64,000 bases of DNA, taken from NCBI GenBank assembly GCA_965199855.1, contig OZ241326.1:2400001-2464000 (forward strand). Reading direction: 5' to 3'. The number at the start of each line of letters is the position of its first letter. Positions within the stretch are counted from its first letter, which is position 1. Of this stretch, positions 50,166-57,507 are shown in pieces. The position numbers and the translations under genes are program-made. The notes beneath the pieces are model-generated. The model did not search any database, had not been told where the DNA came from, and saw only the letters and a program-made list of their open reading frames with translations. This stretch comes from a bacterium (GTDB lineage Bacteria > UBA8248).

Positions 50166-51449
50166 ATGACCACCGAATTCAGACTCCCCGAGCTCGGGGA
50201 AAACATCCAGTCGGGAAAGGTGATCTCCGTTCTGGTGAGCGTGGGCGAGACCATCGCGCTGGATCAGCCCGTCATCGAGGTGGAGACCGAAAAGGCGCTC
50301 ATCGAGGTGCCCTCGTCCGTCGAGGGCAGGATCGCGGAAATTCGCCTTGAACCCGGCGACGACGCCGAGGTGGGCGCGACCATTCTCGTCGTCGAGGAAA
50401 GCGGCGCGGAGCCCGCCCCGGCGGAGGCGGAGGGAGGCGCCGGGGGGGGCGTCGAGGAACCTCCATCGGAGGCGGACGCGCCGCTCACCGCCGAGCCGTC
50501 CGCTCCCCCGGCCGCGCCTCCTGCGGCTGCGCCTGAACCCGTCCCCGGCGCCGGGACGCCCGCGGCGCCCGCGGCGCGCAGAATCGCGCGCGAGGCGGGC
50601 GTGGATATCCGCGAGGTTCCCGGCAGCGGCGCCGGCGGCAGAATCTCTCCGCAGGACGTGAGGGAGTTCGCCGCGGCGCGGGGCGCCGCGCCGGGCGCGC
50701 CCGCGTGGATGCGCGCGCCGGTTCAGCTGCCCGACCTCGCCCGCTGGGGAGAGGTCGAGCGCGCGCCCATGTCGGGAATCCGCCGGGCGGCGTCCGCCAA
50801 TCTCGCCCGCGCGTGGGCGCTCATCCCCCACGTCACCCAGTGCGAGAAGGCGGACGTCTCCGAGCTCGAGAACCTGAGAAAGAAATTCGCTCCCGAGGCG
50901 GAGGCCGCCGGCGGCAAACTCACCATCACCGCCGTTTTGATAAAAGTTCTCGCCTCGGCGCTCGGGGCCTTCCCGCAGTTCAACGCGAGCGTGGACGCGG
51001 CCGCCGGCGAGATCGTCCTCAAGCGCTACGCGCACGTGGGCGTCGCCGTGGACACCGAGAGCGGCCTGCTCGTTCCGGTGATCCGCGACGCGGACAAAAA
51101 GAGCGTCATCGAGCTCTCGGTGGAGCTCGGCGAGGCCGCCGGGCGCGCCCGCTCCCGAAGGCTCGCCCCGGACGACATGGAGGGCGGCTCCATCACCATC
51201 ACGAACCTCGGGGGCCTCGGCGGCACCTATTTCACCCCGATCGTGAAGTGGCCCGAAGTCGCCATCCTCGGCGTCTCGCGGGCGCGCATGGAGCCCGTCT
51301 GGACGGGCGAGGCCTTCGCGCCGCGCCTCATGCTCCCGCTCATGGTCTCCTACGATCACCGCGTCATCGACGGGGCGGACGGCGTCCGGTTCCTGCGCTG
51401 GGTGGCGGACGCCCTCGAAAAGCCGGCTCGCCTGAACCTGGGGGGCTGA
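50166..51449 (+). CDS. aceF: Dihydrolipoamide acetyltransferase E2 (single lipoyl domain)
   Basis: Lipoyl motif ETEKA, PSBD AAPAARRIARE-GVD, catalytic YDHRVIDGADG. Confidence 0.95.
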   Translation: MTTEFRLPELGENIQSGKVISVLVSVGETIALDQPVIEVETEKALIEVPSSVEGRIAEIRLEPGDDAEVGATILVVEESGAEPAPAEAEGGAGGGVEEPPSEADAPLTAEPSAPPAAPPAAAPEPVPGAGTPAAPAARRIAREAGVDIREVPGSGAGGRISPQDVREFAAARGAAPGAPAWMRAPVQLPDLARWGEVERAPMSGIRRAASANLARAWALIPHVTQCEKADVSELENLRKKFAPEAEAAGGKLTITAVLIKVLASALGAFPQFNASVDAAAGEIVLKRYAHVGVAVDTESGLLVPVIRDADKKSVIELSVELGEAAGRARSRRLAPDDMEGGSITITNLGGLGGTYFTPIVKWPEVAILGVSRARMEPVWTGEAFAPRLMLPLMVSYDHRVIDGADGVRFLRWVADALEKPARLNLGG

Positions 51450-52155: not shown

Positions 52156-53670
52156 TCAGCCTTCATGCGCCTCCAGGTCGGCGGGATCGCTCACCTCCAG
52201 GCTTCCCCTCAGCCCGAAGAGGCGCCGCATCTTCTTTCTGAAGGCGGGCGTGAAGAGCCTCTCGGCGTAGAAGCGGCCCGCCGCCCTCTTGTTCACCTGC
52301 GCCAGCGTGGGATAGACGTGCACCGTGTCCACCACCTCCCTGACGCGCATCTTCCTGCGGACGGCCAGGGCGAACTCGTGCAGTATCTCGCCCGCGGAGG
52401 GCCCGACCAGATCGGCGCCCACGAGCCTGCCCTTGGCGTCGCACACCACCTTGCAGAGACCCTCCGTCTCGCCGTCCAGAACGGCGCGATCCACCCGGCT
52501 CATCGGAAAGCGGAGGATCCGCGCGCGGTTCGCCCCGAACGCCTCCCTGGCCTCCGCCTCGCCCATGCCGACGTGCGCCGCCTCGGGCGTGGTGTAGATC
52601 GTCCAGGGGACGGCGTCGTAGTTCGTCTTTTTCCTGAGAAACGGGAGCGGAACGCCGAAGGGCGCGCTGAACAGCATGTTTCTGAGCGCCACGCCCGCCT
52701 CATACTCCGCCATGTGGGTGAACAGATATTGGCCCCGCACGTCGCCCGCGGCGAAGACGCGCGGATTCGAGGTGCGGAGCCAGGCGTCCGTCTCCACCCC
52801 GCGCGGGGTGAAGCGCACGCCCGCCCTCTCCAGGTCCATGCCGCCCACGTTGGGCGAGCGGCCGGTGGCGACGAGCAGCCGGTCGCAGACCCACTCCCTC
52901 CTCCCCGAGGGCGTGTCGGCCTCGACGAGAATCTCATCGCCGCGCTTCGTGATTTTTCGCGCGTCCGCCTCGAAATGGAGTCTCAGGCCGGATTTTTTCA
53001 GGCAGTCGGCGAGGAGCGCCGCCATCTCGGCGTCGAGCCTCGGCAGGAGCTTCGGCGCGCGCTGGAGCACGTCCACCTCGGCGCCCAGCTGCTGAAACGC
53101 CTGGGAGAGCTCCAGGCCGATGGGCCCGGCGCCCAGCACCACGAGGCGCCTCGGTAGCTCCTCCAGATTGAATACGGTCTCGTTCGTGAGGTAGGGAGCG
53201 TCCGCAAGGCCGGCGACGGGCGGCACGAAGGGGGAGCTGCCCGTCGCCAGCAGGAATTTCCTGGCGCGAAGCGTCCTGTCGCCGACCCGGAACGCATCGG
53301 GGCCGATGAAGGCGCCCTCTCCGAAGACGACCTCTATTCCCATGCCCTCGAAGCGCGAGGGCGCGTCGTGCTCGCCGATGCGGGCCTGGGCCGCCTTCAT
53401 GCGCTTCATCACGCGCGGGAAATCGACCCGAACCTCGCCGGCGTCGACGCCGAACGCGGGCATCGAGCGCGCCTGCGCCGCCAGCCGCGCCGCCCGGATG
53501 AGGCCCTTCGAGGGCACGCAGCCGTAGTTCAGGCAGTCGCCGCCGAGCTTCGCCTTCTCGACGAGGGCGACCTTCGCGCCCAGCTGCGCCGCGCCGACCG
53601 AGGCCACGAGCCCCCCGACGCCCCCGCCGATGGCGACCAGATCGAATGACGATTCCTTGTTCAAGCGCAT
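52156..53670 (-). CDS. Class-I pyridine nucleotide-disulfide oxidoreductase (MerA/LpdA-like, no C-terminal CC)
   Basis: GGGVGG, GGDCLNYGCVPSK, GAGPIGLE, ATGR, AAGDV, HVYPTL. Confidence 0.9.
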   Translation of the reverse strand: MRLNKESSFDLVAIGGGVGGLVASVGAAQLGAKVALVEKAKLGGDCLNYGCVPSKGLIRAARLAAQARSMPAFGVDAGEVRVDFPRVMKRMKAAQARIGEHDAPSRFEGMGIEVVFGEGAFIGPDAFRVGDRTLRARKFLLATGSSPFVPPVAGLADAPYLTNETVFNLEELPRRLVVLGAGPIGLELSQAFQQLGAEVDVLQRAPKLLPRLDAEMAALLADCLKKSGLRLHFEADARKITKRGDEILVEADTPSGRREWVCDRLLVATGRSPNVGGMDLERAGVRFTPRGVETDAWLRTSNPRVFAAGDVRGQYLFTHMAEYEAGVALRNMLFSAPFGVPLPFLRKKTNYDAVPWTIYTTPEAAHVGMGEAEAREAFGANRARILRFPMSRVDRAVLDGETEGLCKVVCDAKGRLVGADLVGPSAGEILHEFALAVRRKMRVREVVDTVHVYPTLAQVNKRAAGRFYAERLFTPAFRKKMRRLFGLRGSLEVSDPADLEAHEG

Positions 53671-53725
53671 CCCCTTCCCGGACGGCGAAAGCCGCCCCTC
53701 CCGCGACAAGCGCGCGGCGTCCGCG

Positions 53726-55267
53726 TCAGGCGGCTCCCTCTTCCGAAGGCGCTCCCTCCTCCGAAGGCATGAAGGAGAGCGCGAAGAACAGCCCCGCCAT
53801 GAGAAGCCAGCCGAGCGCCATCCGGGGCGCCGCCGCCCAGGCGAACACGCTGTCCACGCCGAAGGGGGTGATGCGCCAGGCGTGGATGATCCCGAACCAG
53901 CTCGCCACCGCGCCGGCCAGCGCCCAGCCCGCCGCCTGCTTCGCCTGCCTGTCCACCAGCTTCGCCACCGCGGCCGTGATGATGAGGGAGGTGAAGATGA
54001 AGCCGCGCTCCAGGGTGATCATCCCCTCCAGGTGAAAGCCCGCCTTGGCGAACGCCTCCTGCCCGACCTTGTGCAGACTCGTTCCCGCTCCCCGGAGGGC
54101 GGATTCCACCACCAGCAGGCCCCACGCGGCGAGGGTCGGGACGAGGCCCAGGGCCACGGCCGCGCCGTGGCGCGCCGGCGTCGCCTGGAACGCCTGGGTG
54201 ACGATCATCAGCCCTATCCAGAGCATGATGGCGAACAGCGCCTCTTCGGGGATGATTTTCGAGAGCGCCGCGAGCGAGCCGGTGAGGCAGAGAAGCGTGA
54301 TGACGACTCCGTTGACGGCGCTGTAGGCCGAACGCGCCCCCACCGCCTTCCAGGCCGGGTGTCCGATGTAGATGGTCGTGGGAAAGCAGCTGCCCAGGCA
54401 CGCCGCCAGAAGCGAGCCCGCGCCGTTCACCGCCAGCGAGCTGCGCGTCTCGAACCTGTCGCCGCCCACGGCCGCGCTCTCCAGGCACATGAGGCTGCCC
54501 ACGAGCGTCGCCAGCCCCATGGGGATGGAGACCGCGAGAAAGTCCCACGCCAGCGGCCCGAAGAGCGCGCCGAACAGGGAGCCCAGGGCGAGGGTCGGGA
54601 ACGTGAGGCCCACGGCGGCGGGGACGTCGGCCGGCCCCCGGACGATGAGCGAGAGAATGACGCCCGCCGCCACCGCCACGAGGCCGCCCGGCAGGCCGAA
54701 GGGGAGCCGGAACCCGCCGAAATACTGGATGAGGATGATTCCCAGAGGCACCATGGAGATGAGCGGATTCTCCCAGATTCTGAACGCGAACCCCATGGTG
54801 ATGAAGGTGAGGCCGATGCCGCCGAGCGCGGAGAGAAGGGCGGCCCGGGGCGCGAGCCGCCGGACGCGGTCGCCCACCAGCGCGCCCAGGGTCTCGATGA
54901 TTCCGCTCACGAAGCAGGCCGCCAGCCCCGCCTGCCAGGCGGCCTCGACGCTTCCCGTCTTGATCTTGACGGGCAGCATGATGAGAAAGATGAACACGAA
55001 GATCGTCGGCGTGTTCACCCCGTAGGGCATGGCGGTCACGTCCTCGCGCCCCTCGCGCTCCGCCAGGCGGCGCGCCTGCCAGGAGTAGAAAAGGTTGCCG
55101 CCCAGGATGCTCAGGGCCGCGGCGGGAAGCACGCGCCCGAAAATGAGCTCGTCGGGAAATTCGAGAACGAACTTGAGGAGACTCACGACCACGAGAAGGC
55201 TGGCGAGGTTGTCCATCCACAGCCCGAAGAAGCCGTCGATATCTCCCTTCACGAACCACCTGGACAT
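53726..55267 (-). CDS. NCS2/AzgA-like nucleobase permease
   Basis: WFVKGDIDGFFGL, TAMPYG, ESAAVGGD, FPTTIYIGHPAWKAVGAR; many TM helices. Start ATG 55267. Confidence 0.88.
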   Translation of the reverse strand: MSRWFVKGDIDGFFGLWMDNLASLLVVVSLLKFVLEFPDELIFGRVLPAAALSILGGNLFYSWQARRLAEREGREDVTAMPYGVNTPTIFVFIFLIMLPVKIKTGSVEAAWQAGLAACFVSGIIETLGALVGDRVRRLAPRAALLSALGGIGLTFITMGFAFRIWENPLISMVPLGIILIQYFGGFRLPFGLPGGLVAVAAGVILSLIVRGPADVPAAVGLTFPTLALGSLFGALFGPLAWDFLAVSIPMGLATLVGSLMCLESAAVGGDRFETRSSLAVNGAGSLLAACLGSCFPTTIYIGHPAWKAVGARSAYSAVNGVVITLLCLTGSLAALSKIIPEEALFAIMLWIGLMIVTQAFQATPARHGAAVALGLVPTLAAWGLLVVESALRGAGTSLHKVGQEAFAKAGFHLEGMITLERGFIFTSLIITAAVAKLVDRQAKQAAGWALAGAVASWFGIIHAWRITPFGVDSVFAWAAAPRMALGWLLMAGLFFALSFMPSEEGAPSEEGAA

Positions 55268-55377
55268 TCGGAACTCCTCCCACGCGAGATGAAGCCGATC
55301 GGGCGCGATGAGCGGATAGTAAAGCAAGCCGCCCCGCCCGCCAAGAGCCTCCCGGCGTTTTCTCTCCCGCGCCGCTC

Positions 55378-55386
55378 TGCTATGAT
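55378..55386 (+). promoter_or_regulatory. Putative extended -10 promoter of the selenoprotein gene
   Basis: TGCTATGAT about 45 bp upstream of ATG 55429, in the divergent intergenic region. Confidence 0.45.
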
Positions 55387-55428
55387 GCGCCGCACGCTCA
55401 TCGCGATCCCCGCTTCGGGAGAGAAGCC

Positions 55429-56181
55429 ATGGAACCCGTCAAGGTCTATACGCGGCACGGCTGATACACCTGCGCCCTTACGAGAGAGTTTCTCTCGTCG
55501 AACGGCCTGGAGGTCGTGAACAGGGACTGCACGAACGACCCGGAGGCGCGGGCGGAGCTCGCGGCGCTGGGGCTGAAGTCCCTGCCCGTCTCCGCGCGGG
55601 GGGAGAGCGTCGTCGTGGGCTACGACGTGGACGCGCTCCGGGAAGCCTTCGGCGTCGAGGGGAGCGGGGCGGAATCCCTCTCCGCGGAGAAGATGCGGCG
55701 CTACTTCGGGATGGTCTTCGACGCCCTGCGCCGCGCGGTTCGCCAGATTCCGCAGGAAACGCTCGATTGGGTCTCCCCCGGCAGGCCCCGCACGCTGCGC
55801 CAGCTCACCTGGCACAGCTTCGAGCGTCCCGACCTGGTGATGCGGGCGCGCGCCTCGGGAGAATACACCGAGGAGATGGTGCGGGCGTATGAGACGGCGG
55901 CCGACGCCTATCGGACGGCTGAGGACATCTGCGCCTACGGGGATGAAATCGAGGCGAAGCTCGACGCCTTTCTCGCCGGCGGCGCGGGCGCGCTCTCCCG
56001 GAAGGTGGCGAGCTACATGGGGCCCATCACCGCGCACGAGCTGATGATTCTCGCCCTGGGGCACGCCTTCCAGCACCTGCGGCAGACCTATCACTACTTC
56101 GGGATGCTGGGGATCGAGCCGAAAAACCCCCTCAGCCCCGAAGACTACGAGGAAGTCCCCGTGCCGGCGGATCTTTTCTAG
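55429..56181 (+). CDS. Selenocysteine-containing glutaredoxin/NrdH-like domain (UxxC) fused to a DinB-like domain, 250 aa
   Basis: ATG 55429 (GGGAGAG SD) is in frame with ORF 55516: MEPVKVYTRHG-TGA-YTC-ALTREFLSSNG...RDC...LKSLPV...VVGYD. C-terminal RTLRQLTWH...HAFQHLRQ. Confidence 0.85.
55474..55506 (+). promoter_or_regulatory. Putative bacterial SECIS element
   Basis: Perfect stem ACGAGAGA/TCTCTCGT (55480-55498) with a G-containing apical loop about 23 nt after the TGA (55462-55464); lower stem GCCCTT/AACGGC. Confidence 0.72.
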
Positions 56182-56229: not shown

Positions 56230-57507
56230 GTGCCGCCCAAAGCCAACGCTCCCCTTCGGGCGAACCGCGCCCGCATGAAGCGCGAGTTCGACGCCCAGGC
56301 GCAGATCGGAAAATACGGGCGAACGGGCCTCGACCGCGTGGCGTTCACGCCCGCCTACAATCGGGTTCGCGCCCTCGTCGAGGGCTGGATGCGGGAGGCG
56401 GGCCTCGCGACGCGCGTGGACGCCGTGGGGAATCTTTATGGGAGAAAGGAGGGCGCCCGGCGCGGGCTGCCCGCCGTGATGGCCGGCTCCCATCTCGATT
56501 CGCAAAGCCCGGGCGGGCGCTTCGACGGCCCGGCGGGCGTTCTCGCCGCGCTGGAGGCGGCGCGGCGCATCGGCGAGGCGGGACGCGCCCACGACCACCC
56601 CATCGAGGTGGCGGCCTTCGTGGGCGAGGAGTCCGCCTGCGGGATGACGGTGTTCGGCAGCAGCGCCGCGGCGGGCGCCCTGGGCGCGAAGGACCTGCGG
56701 GAGGCGATTCATCCGCCCAGCGGGAAATCCCTCTACGAGGCCGTCCGGGAAGCGGGGGGAGACCCCGCGCGCCTGCGCTCCTGCCGCGTCCGCAAGGGCG
56801 CGCTCAAGGCGTTCGTGGAGCTCCACATCGAGCAGGGCCCTGTTCTCGAGGCGAGCGGGACGCCCATCGGGATCGTGGACAGGGTGGTGGGCTACGCGAG
56901 GGGCGAGGTTCGCTTCTCGGGCGTCTCGGCGCACTCGGGCGGACAGCCCATGCCCTACCGCAGGGACGCCGGCATGGCGGCGGCGGACTTCATGGTGCGC
57001 ATGGAGGGCTTCGTCAAGCGCGCGCCGGCCTCTCGGCGCCTGACGATCACCTTCGGCGAAATGGCGGCGCGTCCCGGGTGGGTCTCCATCGTGCCGGGAG
57101 GGGCGAGCCTCTCCTTCGACCTGCGGAGCAGGAGCGAGGCGGCGATGGCGCGCGCCCTCGCGCGGATGCGGAAAACCCTCGCCGATATAGAAAAGGAGCG
57201 CGGGGTGCGCGGGAGGCTCCTGGGCGTGAAGAGGCTGGCCGTATGCCCCGCCTCCCCGAAAATTCAGAGGGCGCTCCGGCGCGCCTCCGCCGAGACGGGA
57301 CACCCCGCGCTCGCGCTTTCGAGCGGAGGCGTCCACGACGCCTGCCGCATGGCGGAGATATGCCCGATGGGCATGGTGTTCATCCCCTCGGTGAAGGGTC
57401 TCTCGCACACGCCGGAGGAATTCACGCGCTTCGGCGACGTGGTGAAGGGCGCGGAAATCCTCGCCTCGGCCATCCTGCGTCTGGCCGACGGCCGGGTGAA
57501 GGCTTGA
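56230..57507 (+). CDS. M20-family Zn amidohydrolase (allantoate amidohydrolase/N-carbamoyl-L-amino acid hydrolase-like)
   Basis: DAVGN, GSHLDS, GGRFDG, GEES, ELHIEQGPVLE, AHSG..PM..RRDA, SGGVHDA, GLSHTPEE. Confidence 0.93.
   Translation: MPPKANAPLRANRARMKREFDAQAQIGKYGRTGLDRVAFTPAYNRVRALVEGWMREAGLATRVDAVGNLYGRKEGARRGLPAVMAGSHLDSQSPGGRFDGPAGVLAALEAARRIGEAGRAHDHPIEVAAFVGEESACGMTVFGSSAAAGALGAKDLREAIHPPSGKSLYEAVREAGGDPARLRSCRVRKGALKAFVELHIEQGPVLEASGTPIGIVDRVVGYARGEVRFSGVSAHSGGQPMPYRRDAGMAAADFMVRMEGFVKRAPASRRLTITFGEMAARPGWVSIVPGGASLSFDLRSRSEAAMARALARMRKTLADIEKERGVRGRLLGVKRLAVCPASPKIQRALRRASAETGHPALALSSGGVHDACRMAEICPMGMVFIPSVKGLSHTPEEFTRFGDVVKGAEILASAILRLADGRVKA

Follow-up and report, generated by a model that had tools for sequence, protein, structure and literature searches.

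Proteins of the DinB/YfiT superfamily are helical bundles in which a histidine triad binds a divalent metal ion, and the S-transferases among them use free mycothiol or bacillithiol. A second well-studied module is the selenocysteine (Sec)-containing glutaredoxin. In the main text of a 2026 review of prokaryotic selenoproteins (PMC13188914), Sec-glutaredoxins (Grx, PF00462, UxxC) are placed among the experimentally supported prokaryotic selenoproteins. Here we describe a gene in which these two modules are joined. It lies at positions 55429-56181 on the forward strand of a 64,000-nucleotide stretch of bacterial contig OZ241326.1 (assembly GCA_965199855.1, positions 2,400,001 to 2,464,000), referred to below as the window. 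The gene very probably encodes a selenoprotein of 250 residues, with an N-terminal Grx domain, predicted Sec incorporation at codon 12, and a C-terminal DinB bundle. The window protein is like the Sec-glutaredoxins and the solved glutaredoxin 7c10 in its fold, in the U/C-x-x-C at the start of helix 1 and in a K-E-F-L-S motif, and its Sec would likewise come from a UGA followed by a downstream hairpin. It differs from them in that Sec-glutaredoxins are stand-alone proteins of ~80 residues, whereas the domain in the window forms the N-terminal third of a 250-residue DinB fusion. With the DinB/YfiT metalloproteins (8f5v, 1rxq and 6iz2) it shares the helical bundle, the H...H-x3-H triad and a DinB_2 match above cut-off. 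These proteins are only 13-17% identical to it and lack a fused redoxin or Sec; unlike them, the window protein carries its selenol/thiol pair covalently attached and protein-borne. The original prediction, made from the DNA sequence alone, was of a hidden selenoprotein in which a UxxC Sec-glutaredoxin is fused to a DinB-like domain and an in-frame selenocysteine insertion sequence (SECIS) is present, and it is supported by the comparisons that follow.

In a table-11 open reading frame (ORF) list, the frame opens at GTG 55516 and gives a product of 221 amino acids. This frame can be followed further upstream to ATG 55429, from which it runs for 250 codons to the TAG stop at 56179-56181, and the sole interruption is a TGA at 55462-55464 (+), codon 12, which bears out the proposed extension of the gene across one TGA. 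The read-through peptide begins M-E-P-V-K-V-Y-T-R-H-G-U-Y-T-C, and the TGA is therefore the first position of a UxxC motif. U12 falls inside the Pfam Glutaredoxin match (PF00462, residues 4-54, 34.5 bits against a cut-off of 22.9), in agreement with its proposed placement at the first Cys of a glutaredoxin CxxC. The codon of the second, putatively resolving residue of the motif, C15, lies at 55471-55473 (+); it is TGC or TGT in all 40 distinct sequences, and the residue is invariant. A Shine-Dalgarno (SD) sequence, GGGAGA, is positioned at 55417-55422 (+), 6 nt 5' of ATG 55429, and a putative extended -10 element, TGnTATGAT, can be read at 55378-55386 (+). Both elements had been noted before the present analysis, and both recur in relatives: an SD-like motif is found in 40 of 41 orthologous upstream regions, and in our own motif search a TGnTATGnT element was located 41-60 nt 5' of the ATG in all 24 of the closest loci (the window, L053-L074 and L082). 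A generic sigma-70 -35/-10 scan, which requires a -35 box, returned no promoter site. An RNA run was looked for among 23 listed sequencing runs and none is present.

The TGA at codon 12 is shared by every relative in which it could be read. Among 61 related genomes there are 35 full-length matches, each with exactly one TGA. A wider scan of one genome per species (185,579 species) gave 42 loci, mostly from metagenome-assembled genomes (MAGs) labelled Nitrospinota, Nitrospinaceae or Tectomicrobia, together with one Sulfotelmatobacter and three loci from Thermodesulfobacteriota MAGs. Contig ends truncate two of these loci; the remaining 40 keep the N-terminus, and all 40 have an ATG start and a TGA at codon 12, at 46-92% protein identity. 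The 40 loci overlap with the genomes behind the 35 matches, and the two counts are not independent. The TGA is thus invariant in 41 of 41 aligned sequences (the window plus the 40 loci). The ATG stands at the same start position in 30 of 30 loci of one set and in 40 of 40 loci of the codon comparison, and the frame is otherwise intact in all loci of the 30-locus set. A lone in-frame stop near the 5' end has the look of a nonsense mutation, and might have arisen through an error in sequencing or assembly, or through a mutation that recently inactivated the gene and left a pseudogene. Contigs from four runs, belonging to four independent studies, span the gene in full; of the 11 positions at which they depart from the window, none falls within the TGA, the hairpin or the codons of the N-terminus. 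The recurrence of the TGA in these contigs and in 40 other loci, with frames that are otherwise intact, refutes the error or pseudogene explanation, to which we assign a vanishingly small probability.

The codons that precede the TGA show the substitution pattern of a protein-coding sequence. In the 40 distinct sequences, V4, Y7, R9 and G11 are each restricted to one amino acid but are encoded by 4, 2, 5 and 4 codons, respectively. Conservation of the coding type is thereby found on both sides of the UGA, at codons 4, 7, 9 and 11 and in the downstream domain, and on this comparative evidence the stretch 5' of the TGA is translated. The alternative is that the TGA is a true stop, in which case a DinB-only product of ~200-224 residues would be made from GTG 55516 or nearby and the 11 upstream codons would be leader or non-coding sequence. 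Table-11 ORF calling yields just such a product, TGA is the normal stop of four of the seven window genes checked, and 41 of the 42 database relatives are annotated as the DinB-only product. These 41 entries lack the N-terminus, as had been anticipated for annotation pipelines, and those that are named are called 'DinB family protein', the name under which Sec forms are filed at 190-224 amino acids. A start at 55516, however, would leave the glutaredoxin fold without strand 1, helix 1 and the active site, and the 11 codons 5' of the TGA are conserved as protein with synonymous variation. Furthermore, the truncated forms have no common annotated start, their starts being spread from profile position 17 to position 52, and full-length CxxC homologues align end to end, while the SD sequence and the conserved extended -10 element precede ATG 55429. 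We consider termination at the TGA very improbable.

A Sec-containing product depends on the presence of the Sec machinery, which was sought in the genome of the window itself, a single 3.04-Mb contig. A tRNA-Sec was found at 79.4 bits against a cut-off of 47, and ARAGORN reports a tRNA-SeC with anticodon TCA. The genes selA (548 bits) and, adjacent to it, selB (372 bits) both score above the curated cut-offs, as does selD (344 bits), which contains one in-frame TGA. This search, whose failure would have undone the selenoprotein assignment, thus recovered selA, selB, selD and tRNA-Sec. TGA ends ordinary genes in this genome, as seen in the four window genes mentioned above, and it is not reassigned. 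A further possibility is that the UGA is read through as an amino acid other than Sec, by a near-cognate Trp or Cys tRNA or by local reassignment, with the hairpin merely stimulating read-through. Codon 12 was indeed rendered as W by one metagenome pipeline (P0018 and P0071), and the sole full-length entry among the 42 database relatives has W at position 12. Against this stand the complete Sec machinery, the use of TGA as an ordinary stop, and the alignment of codon 12 with the redox-active Cys of CxxC homologues, which forms a classic Sec/Cys pair. The nearest solved glutaredoxin, 7c10, comes from a Grx group that includes a natural selenoprotein. Read-through as another residue is accordingly rated as highly unlikely, and insertion of Sec is the reading adopted below.

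Other probable selenoprotein genes were observed in this genome and its relatives. The single TGA of selD (G000:C1:2985603-2986568 (-), locus L018) is located at the G-G-U-G motif, which indicates a Sec-containing SelD. Weak matches to the Grx part in related genomes correspond to short frames of ~85-110 amino acids with one in-frame TGA each (for example G001:C1:3013225-3013452, G038:C5:123046-123267 and G029:C1:458115-458339); these are probably separate stand-alone Sec-glutaredoxin-like genes of this lineage. In BSepDB the lineage, represented by MAGs labelled Nitrospinota or Tectomicrobia, counts as one of the bacterial groups richest in selenoproteins, and the MAG that carries L080 is credited with 54 selenoprotein genes. 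Given this richness, more genes may be hidden in the same way.

The hairpin downstream of the TGA is positioned at 55480-55498 (+) and consists of a perfect 8-bp stem (55480-55487 paired with 55491-55498) and a GUU loop (55488-55490), matching the stem with a G-containing loop that had been described. The hairpin is predicted in the minimum-free-energy (MFE) structure, and its distance from the TGA is 15 nt to the start of the stem and 24 nt to the loop G. It runs from codon 18 to the first base of codon 24 (T-R-E-F-L-S-S). Pairing was evaluated on the 41-sequence alignment, which contains 36 distinct rows: 95.8% of the hairpin cells pair, compared with 33-72% in slid registers. At one stem pair, 28 rows have G-C and 8 have A-U, and no row breaks the pair; at a second, 29 rows have A-U and 7 have G-U; and at a third, 31 rows have C-G, 1 has U-A and 4 are unpaired. 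The compensatory changes expected of a functional stem are therefore present as switches from G-C to A-U, with pairing kept at 95.8%. Codon choice within the hairpin is narrow. Thr18 is ACG in 36 of 36 sequences and Glu20 is GAG in 40 of 40, while Arg19 uses AGA or AGG only. Outside the hairpin, elsewhere in the gene, the same amino acids use four to six codons: Thr8 has four, Arg9 five and Arg32 six, and Glu2 and Glu28 prefer GAA.

Homologues with Cys in place of Sec provide a natural control that separates RNA-level from protein-level constraint, since the same T-[K/R]-E-F-L peptide occurs with and without the hairpin. Because this peptide is also conserved in the Cys forms, 80 Cys-form loci were fetched, all from one subfamily, out of at least 562 metagenome relatives; the motif was found in 78. 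These 78 genes have the T-K-E-F-L peptide in common with the Sec forms, but pairing is seen at only 2-6 of the eight stem positions (mode 3), and codon use at the equivalent positions is unconstrained. The folding energy of the 27-nt segment has a median of -10.1 kcal/mol in the Sec forms (range -13.2 to -4.0; 38 distinct sequences) and of -1.7 kcal/mol in the Cys forms (range -4.2 to 0; 65 distinct sequences). Judged from these alignments, the hairpin is under selection at the RNA level.

Several observations weigh against the assignment of a SECIS-dependent Grx-DinB selenoprotein. The fold of the 62-nt segment is not exceptional for a G+C-rich sequence (z = -0.79; 45 of 200 shuffles are as good). 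The covariation amounts to few events in related rows, with two pairs changing on both sides, and 95 of 500 shuffles also reach two doubly changed pairs. Nucleotide conservation of the hairpin is in part a protein-level effect, because the encoded peptide is itself conserved, and the apical loop is only 3 nt long. No Rfam family was found for the hairpin in a search of 55380-55600 with E up to 10, which gave one chance match to an internal ribosome entry site (IRES); to our knowledge, Rfam has no general bacterial SECIS model. On the protein side, no NCBIfam model was matched at its cut-off and none covers the DinB part. The Grx-like models compared were Uxx-star NF041212, NF041114, NF041211 and NF047338, YruB TIGR02196 and NrdH TIGR02194; the best scores were 42.8 against a cut-off of 88.55, 37.3 against 85.75 and 34.6 against 66, and the top matches, all below cut-off, are to the YruB and NrdH-like families. 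Taken across the aligned loci, the comparative evidence for the SECIS and the TGA is far beyond chance, whereas the thermodynamic test alone is not significant.

The predicted protein is composed of an N-terminal Glutaredoxin/NrdH-like thioredoxin-fold domain (residues 1-~78, 55429-55662 (+)) and a C-terminal DinB-type helical bundle (residues ~86-227, 55684-56109 (+)), each delineated by Pfam, AlphaFold2 (AF2), profile and Foldseek evidence. The C-terminal domain matches Pfam DinB_2 (PF12867) over residues 98-219 at 32.3 bits against a cut-off of 24.8. An AF2 model was built on a 15-sequence alignment and has a pLDDT of 92.1 and a pTM of 0.89. The model exhibits the beta-alpha-beta-alpha-beta-beta-alpha pattern of a thioredoxin fold over residues 4-74, followed by long helices over residues 86-227, and places U12 and C15 at the start of helix 1 (residues 13-24). 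In Foldseek comparisons, the N-terminal part has its best matches in BC3987, 7c10 ('Dithiol cGrx1') and NrdH redoxins, with TM scores of 0.87-0.88 on target and 38-40% identity for 7c10; PDB entry 3zit is among the structures matched. The best match of the C-terminal part is the DinB/YfiT protein DR0053 of Deinococcus radiodurans (6iz2; E = 1.4e-4, TM 0.83 on target), and further matches include 8f5v, the Mycobacterium tuberculosis mycothiol S-transferase with mycothiol and Zn, and 1rxq, Bacillus subtilis YfiT; TM scores on target for the DinB/YfiT proteins are 0.83, 0.69 and 0.69-0.74. The similarity to 8f5v is at the level of the fold (17% identity, TM 0.69 on target, rmsd 5.0). A family profile built without the read-through protein gives the same two-part assignment, matching glutaredoxin 7c10 in the Protein Data Bank (PDB) at 4.4e-19 and the DinB-like proteins 3gor, 3dka and 6iz2 at 7e-7 to 5e-5.

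The DinB domain retains the DinB/YfiT histidine triad, as had been noted from the sequence. The codon of H129, the first His of the putative metal triad, lies at 55813-55815 (+), and the codons of H212 to H216, which form the H-x3-H of the triad, lie at 56062-56076 (+). All three residues are invariant in alignments A1, A3 and A6, and of the 125 representatives that span the three positions, 113 have H-H-H. They are presumably equivalent to the metal ligands of YfiT and the mycothiol S-transferases (MST). Across the Sec forms the invariant residues are U12, C15, P53, H129, H212 and H216 together with four arginines, R119, R121, R124 and R218. The layout of a thioredoxin-fold domain followed by a helical domain is also that of the canonical glutathione S-transferases (GSTs), but the helical fold of these enzymes is a different one and the likeness is an analogy rather than membership. 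Foldseek matches to GSTs have an rmsd of 11-17 Å and TM scores of 0.23-0.34 on query and are not meaningful.

The Grx-DinB arrangement extends well beyond the lineage of the window. A profile of 15 full-length sequences was compared with 1.84 billion representative proteins and gave 3697 matches at E <= 0.001, 453 of them reaching <= 1e-10. The best 150 of the 3697 matches were classified at position 12. Of these, 54 clusters have C-x-x-C at the aligned position, mostly as P-G-C-S/T-S-C; one has W, the product of a pipeline that translated the TGA as Trp; one has S-x-x-S; eight are fragments; and 86 start inside the glutaredoxin domain, at the scattered profile positions given above. The 86 are likely to be Sec forms cut at the TGA, which is confirmed for the DNA-checked lineages only. 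Homologues therefore have either a Sec-TGA or a Cys at the position of codon 12, the pattern looked for in a Sec/Cys family. The Cys forms contain both Pfam domains and carry source names of 'glutaredoxin' or 'hypothetical protein'. Representatives from marine and other metagenomes (for example P0062, P0064 and P0100) are true homologues of the window protein, with the same two domains, the same spacing of the redox motif, T-K-E-F-L, the His triad and R-x-R-x-x-R. They differ in having CxxC (mostly C-S/T-S-C) in place of UxxC and no hairpin after the codon, are 21-31% identical to the window protein and are uncharacterised. On this sequence evidence, the Grx-DinB fusions are a large family with both Sec and Cys (CxxC) forms.

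The distribution of the two forms was viewed on a FastTree phylogeny of the DinB part, which comprises 140 rows, 25 of the 165 aligned rows having been left out with fewer than 150 filled columns. Sec-or-truncated and Cys forms are interspersed on the tree, with at least 16 state changes if truncated forms are counted as Sec. Support is low, 62 of 137 branches being unsupported, and the truncated rows are not confirmed as Sec, so that the tree provides only a hint of repeated switching between Sec and Cys in the family. Among individual members, a metagenome protein of 721 amino acids (P0185) has the N- and C-domains of MmgE/PrpD followed by a Cys-form Grx-DinB unit, and another of 261 amino acids (P0162) has S-x-x-S at the redox motif with the His triad kept.

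The domain arrangement leads to a proposed mechanism. Translation would start at ATG 55429, and the UGA at codon 12 would be decoded as Sec by the SelB and tRNA-Sec of the genome, recruited by the SECIS hairpin located in the coding sequence 15 nt downstream. The mature protein is predicted to present U12-x-x-C15 at the start of helix 1 of a Grx/NrdH-like fold, connected by a short linker to the DinB bundle with H129, H212 and H216. The DinB domain would bind a metal ion and the substrate, and the Arg cluster suggests that this substrate may be anionic. The Sec12 selenolate is envisaged as a built-in nucleophile or reductant that replaces or recycles a low-molecular-weight thiol. C15 would then resolve the adduct with formation of a selenenylsulfide, and an external disulfide reductase would reduce it. 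A thioredoxin-reductase-type enzyme is proposed for this last step because of the NrdH/YruB-like NCBIfam matches, NrdH-like redoxins being known to use thioredoxin reductase; a nearby flavoprotein is the other candidate. We put forward this chemistry, in which Sec12 acts as nucleophile or reductant with a DinB-bound metal and C15 resolves, as a tentative proposal that may well prove incorrect. The functional suggestion of the original prediction, a selenium-dependent thiol conjugation or reductive detoxification, would be compatible with the modelled fold matches to DinB/YfiT proteins and mycothiol S-transferase.

The same selenoprotein might instead follow another chemistry. Sec12, together with C15, could directly ligate the metal of the DinB domain and so form a Se-metal centre, or the Grx domain could be a dedicated reductant of another protein, with the DinB domain serving as a docking or regulatory module. 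The pTM of the model, 0.89, suggests a fixed arrangement of the two domains, which would suit such roles, and a clostridial Sec-glutaredoxin reportedly acts as a dedicated reductant of another selenoprotein. The SxxS of P0162, which keeps its His triad, likewise indicates that a DinB site can be present where the redox pair is absent. Almost every full-length member has both the His triad and the CxxC or UxxC motif, but this fits any coupled mechanism and does not discriminate between them. We regard these alternatives as improbable, without dismissing them. Genomic context speaks against a firm functional assignment of any kind, as the neighbourhood is conserved only within the lineage of the window and is inconsistent in distant Sec and Cys forms.

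A broader and rather doubtful extension of the Sec12-nucleophile proposal is that the Grx-DinB proteins form an unrecognised class of self-contained metallo-seleno/thiol enzymes, and would include the first selenoenzymes of the DinB superfamily. In such enzymes the metal-activated nucleophile would be a protein-borne Sec or Cys in place of free mycothiol or bacillithiol, and C15 together with an external reductase would close the cycle. In this reading the family is common among marine bacteria and bacteria associated with sponges, and changes between Sec and Cys may have occurred repeatedly within it. The fusion joins two well-studied modules, a Sec-glutaredoxin and the type of DinB metal site that thiol S-transferases use, and it offers a testable hypothesis, that of a DinB enzyme carrying its own nucleophile.

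Sec-glutaredoxins and DinB proteins are each known, and their fusion is not mentioned in the literature covered. The words 'DinB', 'PF12867', 'mycothiol' and 'bacillithiol' do not occur in the main text of the 2026 review (PMC13188914), and 'DinB' does not occur in the main texts of BSepDB or Peng et al. 2016 (PMC5029168). Full-text literature searches returned no relevant paper joining selenoprotein or selenocysteine with DinB. BSepDB may already list this gene under 'Grx'. Public databases store the Grx-DinB family without its active site, and work built on these truncated records would miss the redox centre. We describe the family as systematically mis-annotated because 86 of the best 150 clusters start inside the Grx domain.

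The selenoprotein gene is followed at a distance of 48 nt, on the same strand, by a gene for an M20 amidase of the hydantoinase/carbamoylase family (56230-57507 (+); TIGR01879, 340.9 bits against a cut-off of 204), which is downstream in 31 of the 42 related loci. No terminator-like site was found on the + strand between the two genes, and from this arrangement they are likely to be co-transcribed. The best named matches of the amidase, below cut-off, are N-carbamyl-L-glutamate amidohydrolase ErtE and allantoate amidohydrolase. Upstream and divergently oriented is a conserved multi-helix membrane protein (53726-55327 (-)), which is found in 28 of the 42 loci at 63-93% identity. It has no Pfam or NCBIfam family, in the case of Pfam even at E = 10, and its AF2 model is poor (pLDDT 49.5). 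Its nearest Atlas clusters are auto-named 'AGZA family xanthine/uracil permease', which serves as a lead only, and its true start is probably a Met 20 codons into the ORF. Two genes 5' of the selenoprotein gene lies a class-I FAD-dependent pyridine-nucleotide disulfide oxidoreductase (52156-53709 (-)), composed of Pyr_redox_2 and a dimerisation domain, whose best NCBIfam matches are 'FAD-containing oxidoreductase' and MerA, both below cut-off. This flavoprotein is present in 21 of the 42 loci, adjoins the selenoprotein gene divergently in L071 and L073, and is a candidate reductase of the UxxC domain.

Neighbours of the distant Sec forms are mixed and have no common theme; among them are PFOR, an E1-like enzyme, an aldo-keto reductase, GGDEF proteins, an S15 peptidase, an HpcH aldolase, TctA, GntR and an EgtD-like methyltransferase. 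Recurrent neighbours of the Cys forms are infrequent among the 80 loci: TauD in 10, a class-III aminotransferase in 9, a sulfotransferase-TPR protein in 8, ATC hydrolase in 7 and PhyH in 6. The M20 amidase and ATC-hydrolase neighbours faintly suggest a connection with the metabolism of carbamoyl or thiazoline sulfur compounds. A divergent SulP anion permease that seemed to be present in '47 of 80' Cys-form loci was rejected as an artefact of antisense ORFs that overlap the Cys-form gene and had been joined to one long ORF; direct tblastn finds the SulP part in only 1 of the 80, and the window membrane protein has no similarity to SulP (BLASTP E = 0.4).

Some individual loci show further features. 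In one Thermodesulfobacteriota MAG (L093), the Sec-form gene is flanked by a convergent EgtD-like histidine methyltransferase gene (PF10017, 291 bits) and by a GntR/FCD regulator with a TctA transporter; coordinates of the flanking genes are L093:3812-5230 (-) and L093:2208-2939 (-). The same MAG has a second paralogue (L090), and two other MAGs have two copies each (L078 and L089; L081 and L094). Within the window, a 2-oxoacid dehydrogenase E2 acyltransferase with lipoyl, E3-binding and catalytic domains is encoded at 50166-51449 (+) and belongs to ordinary metabolism.

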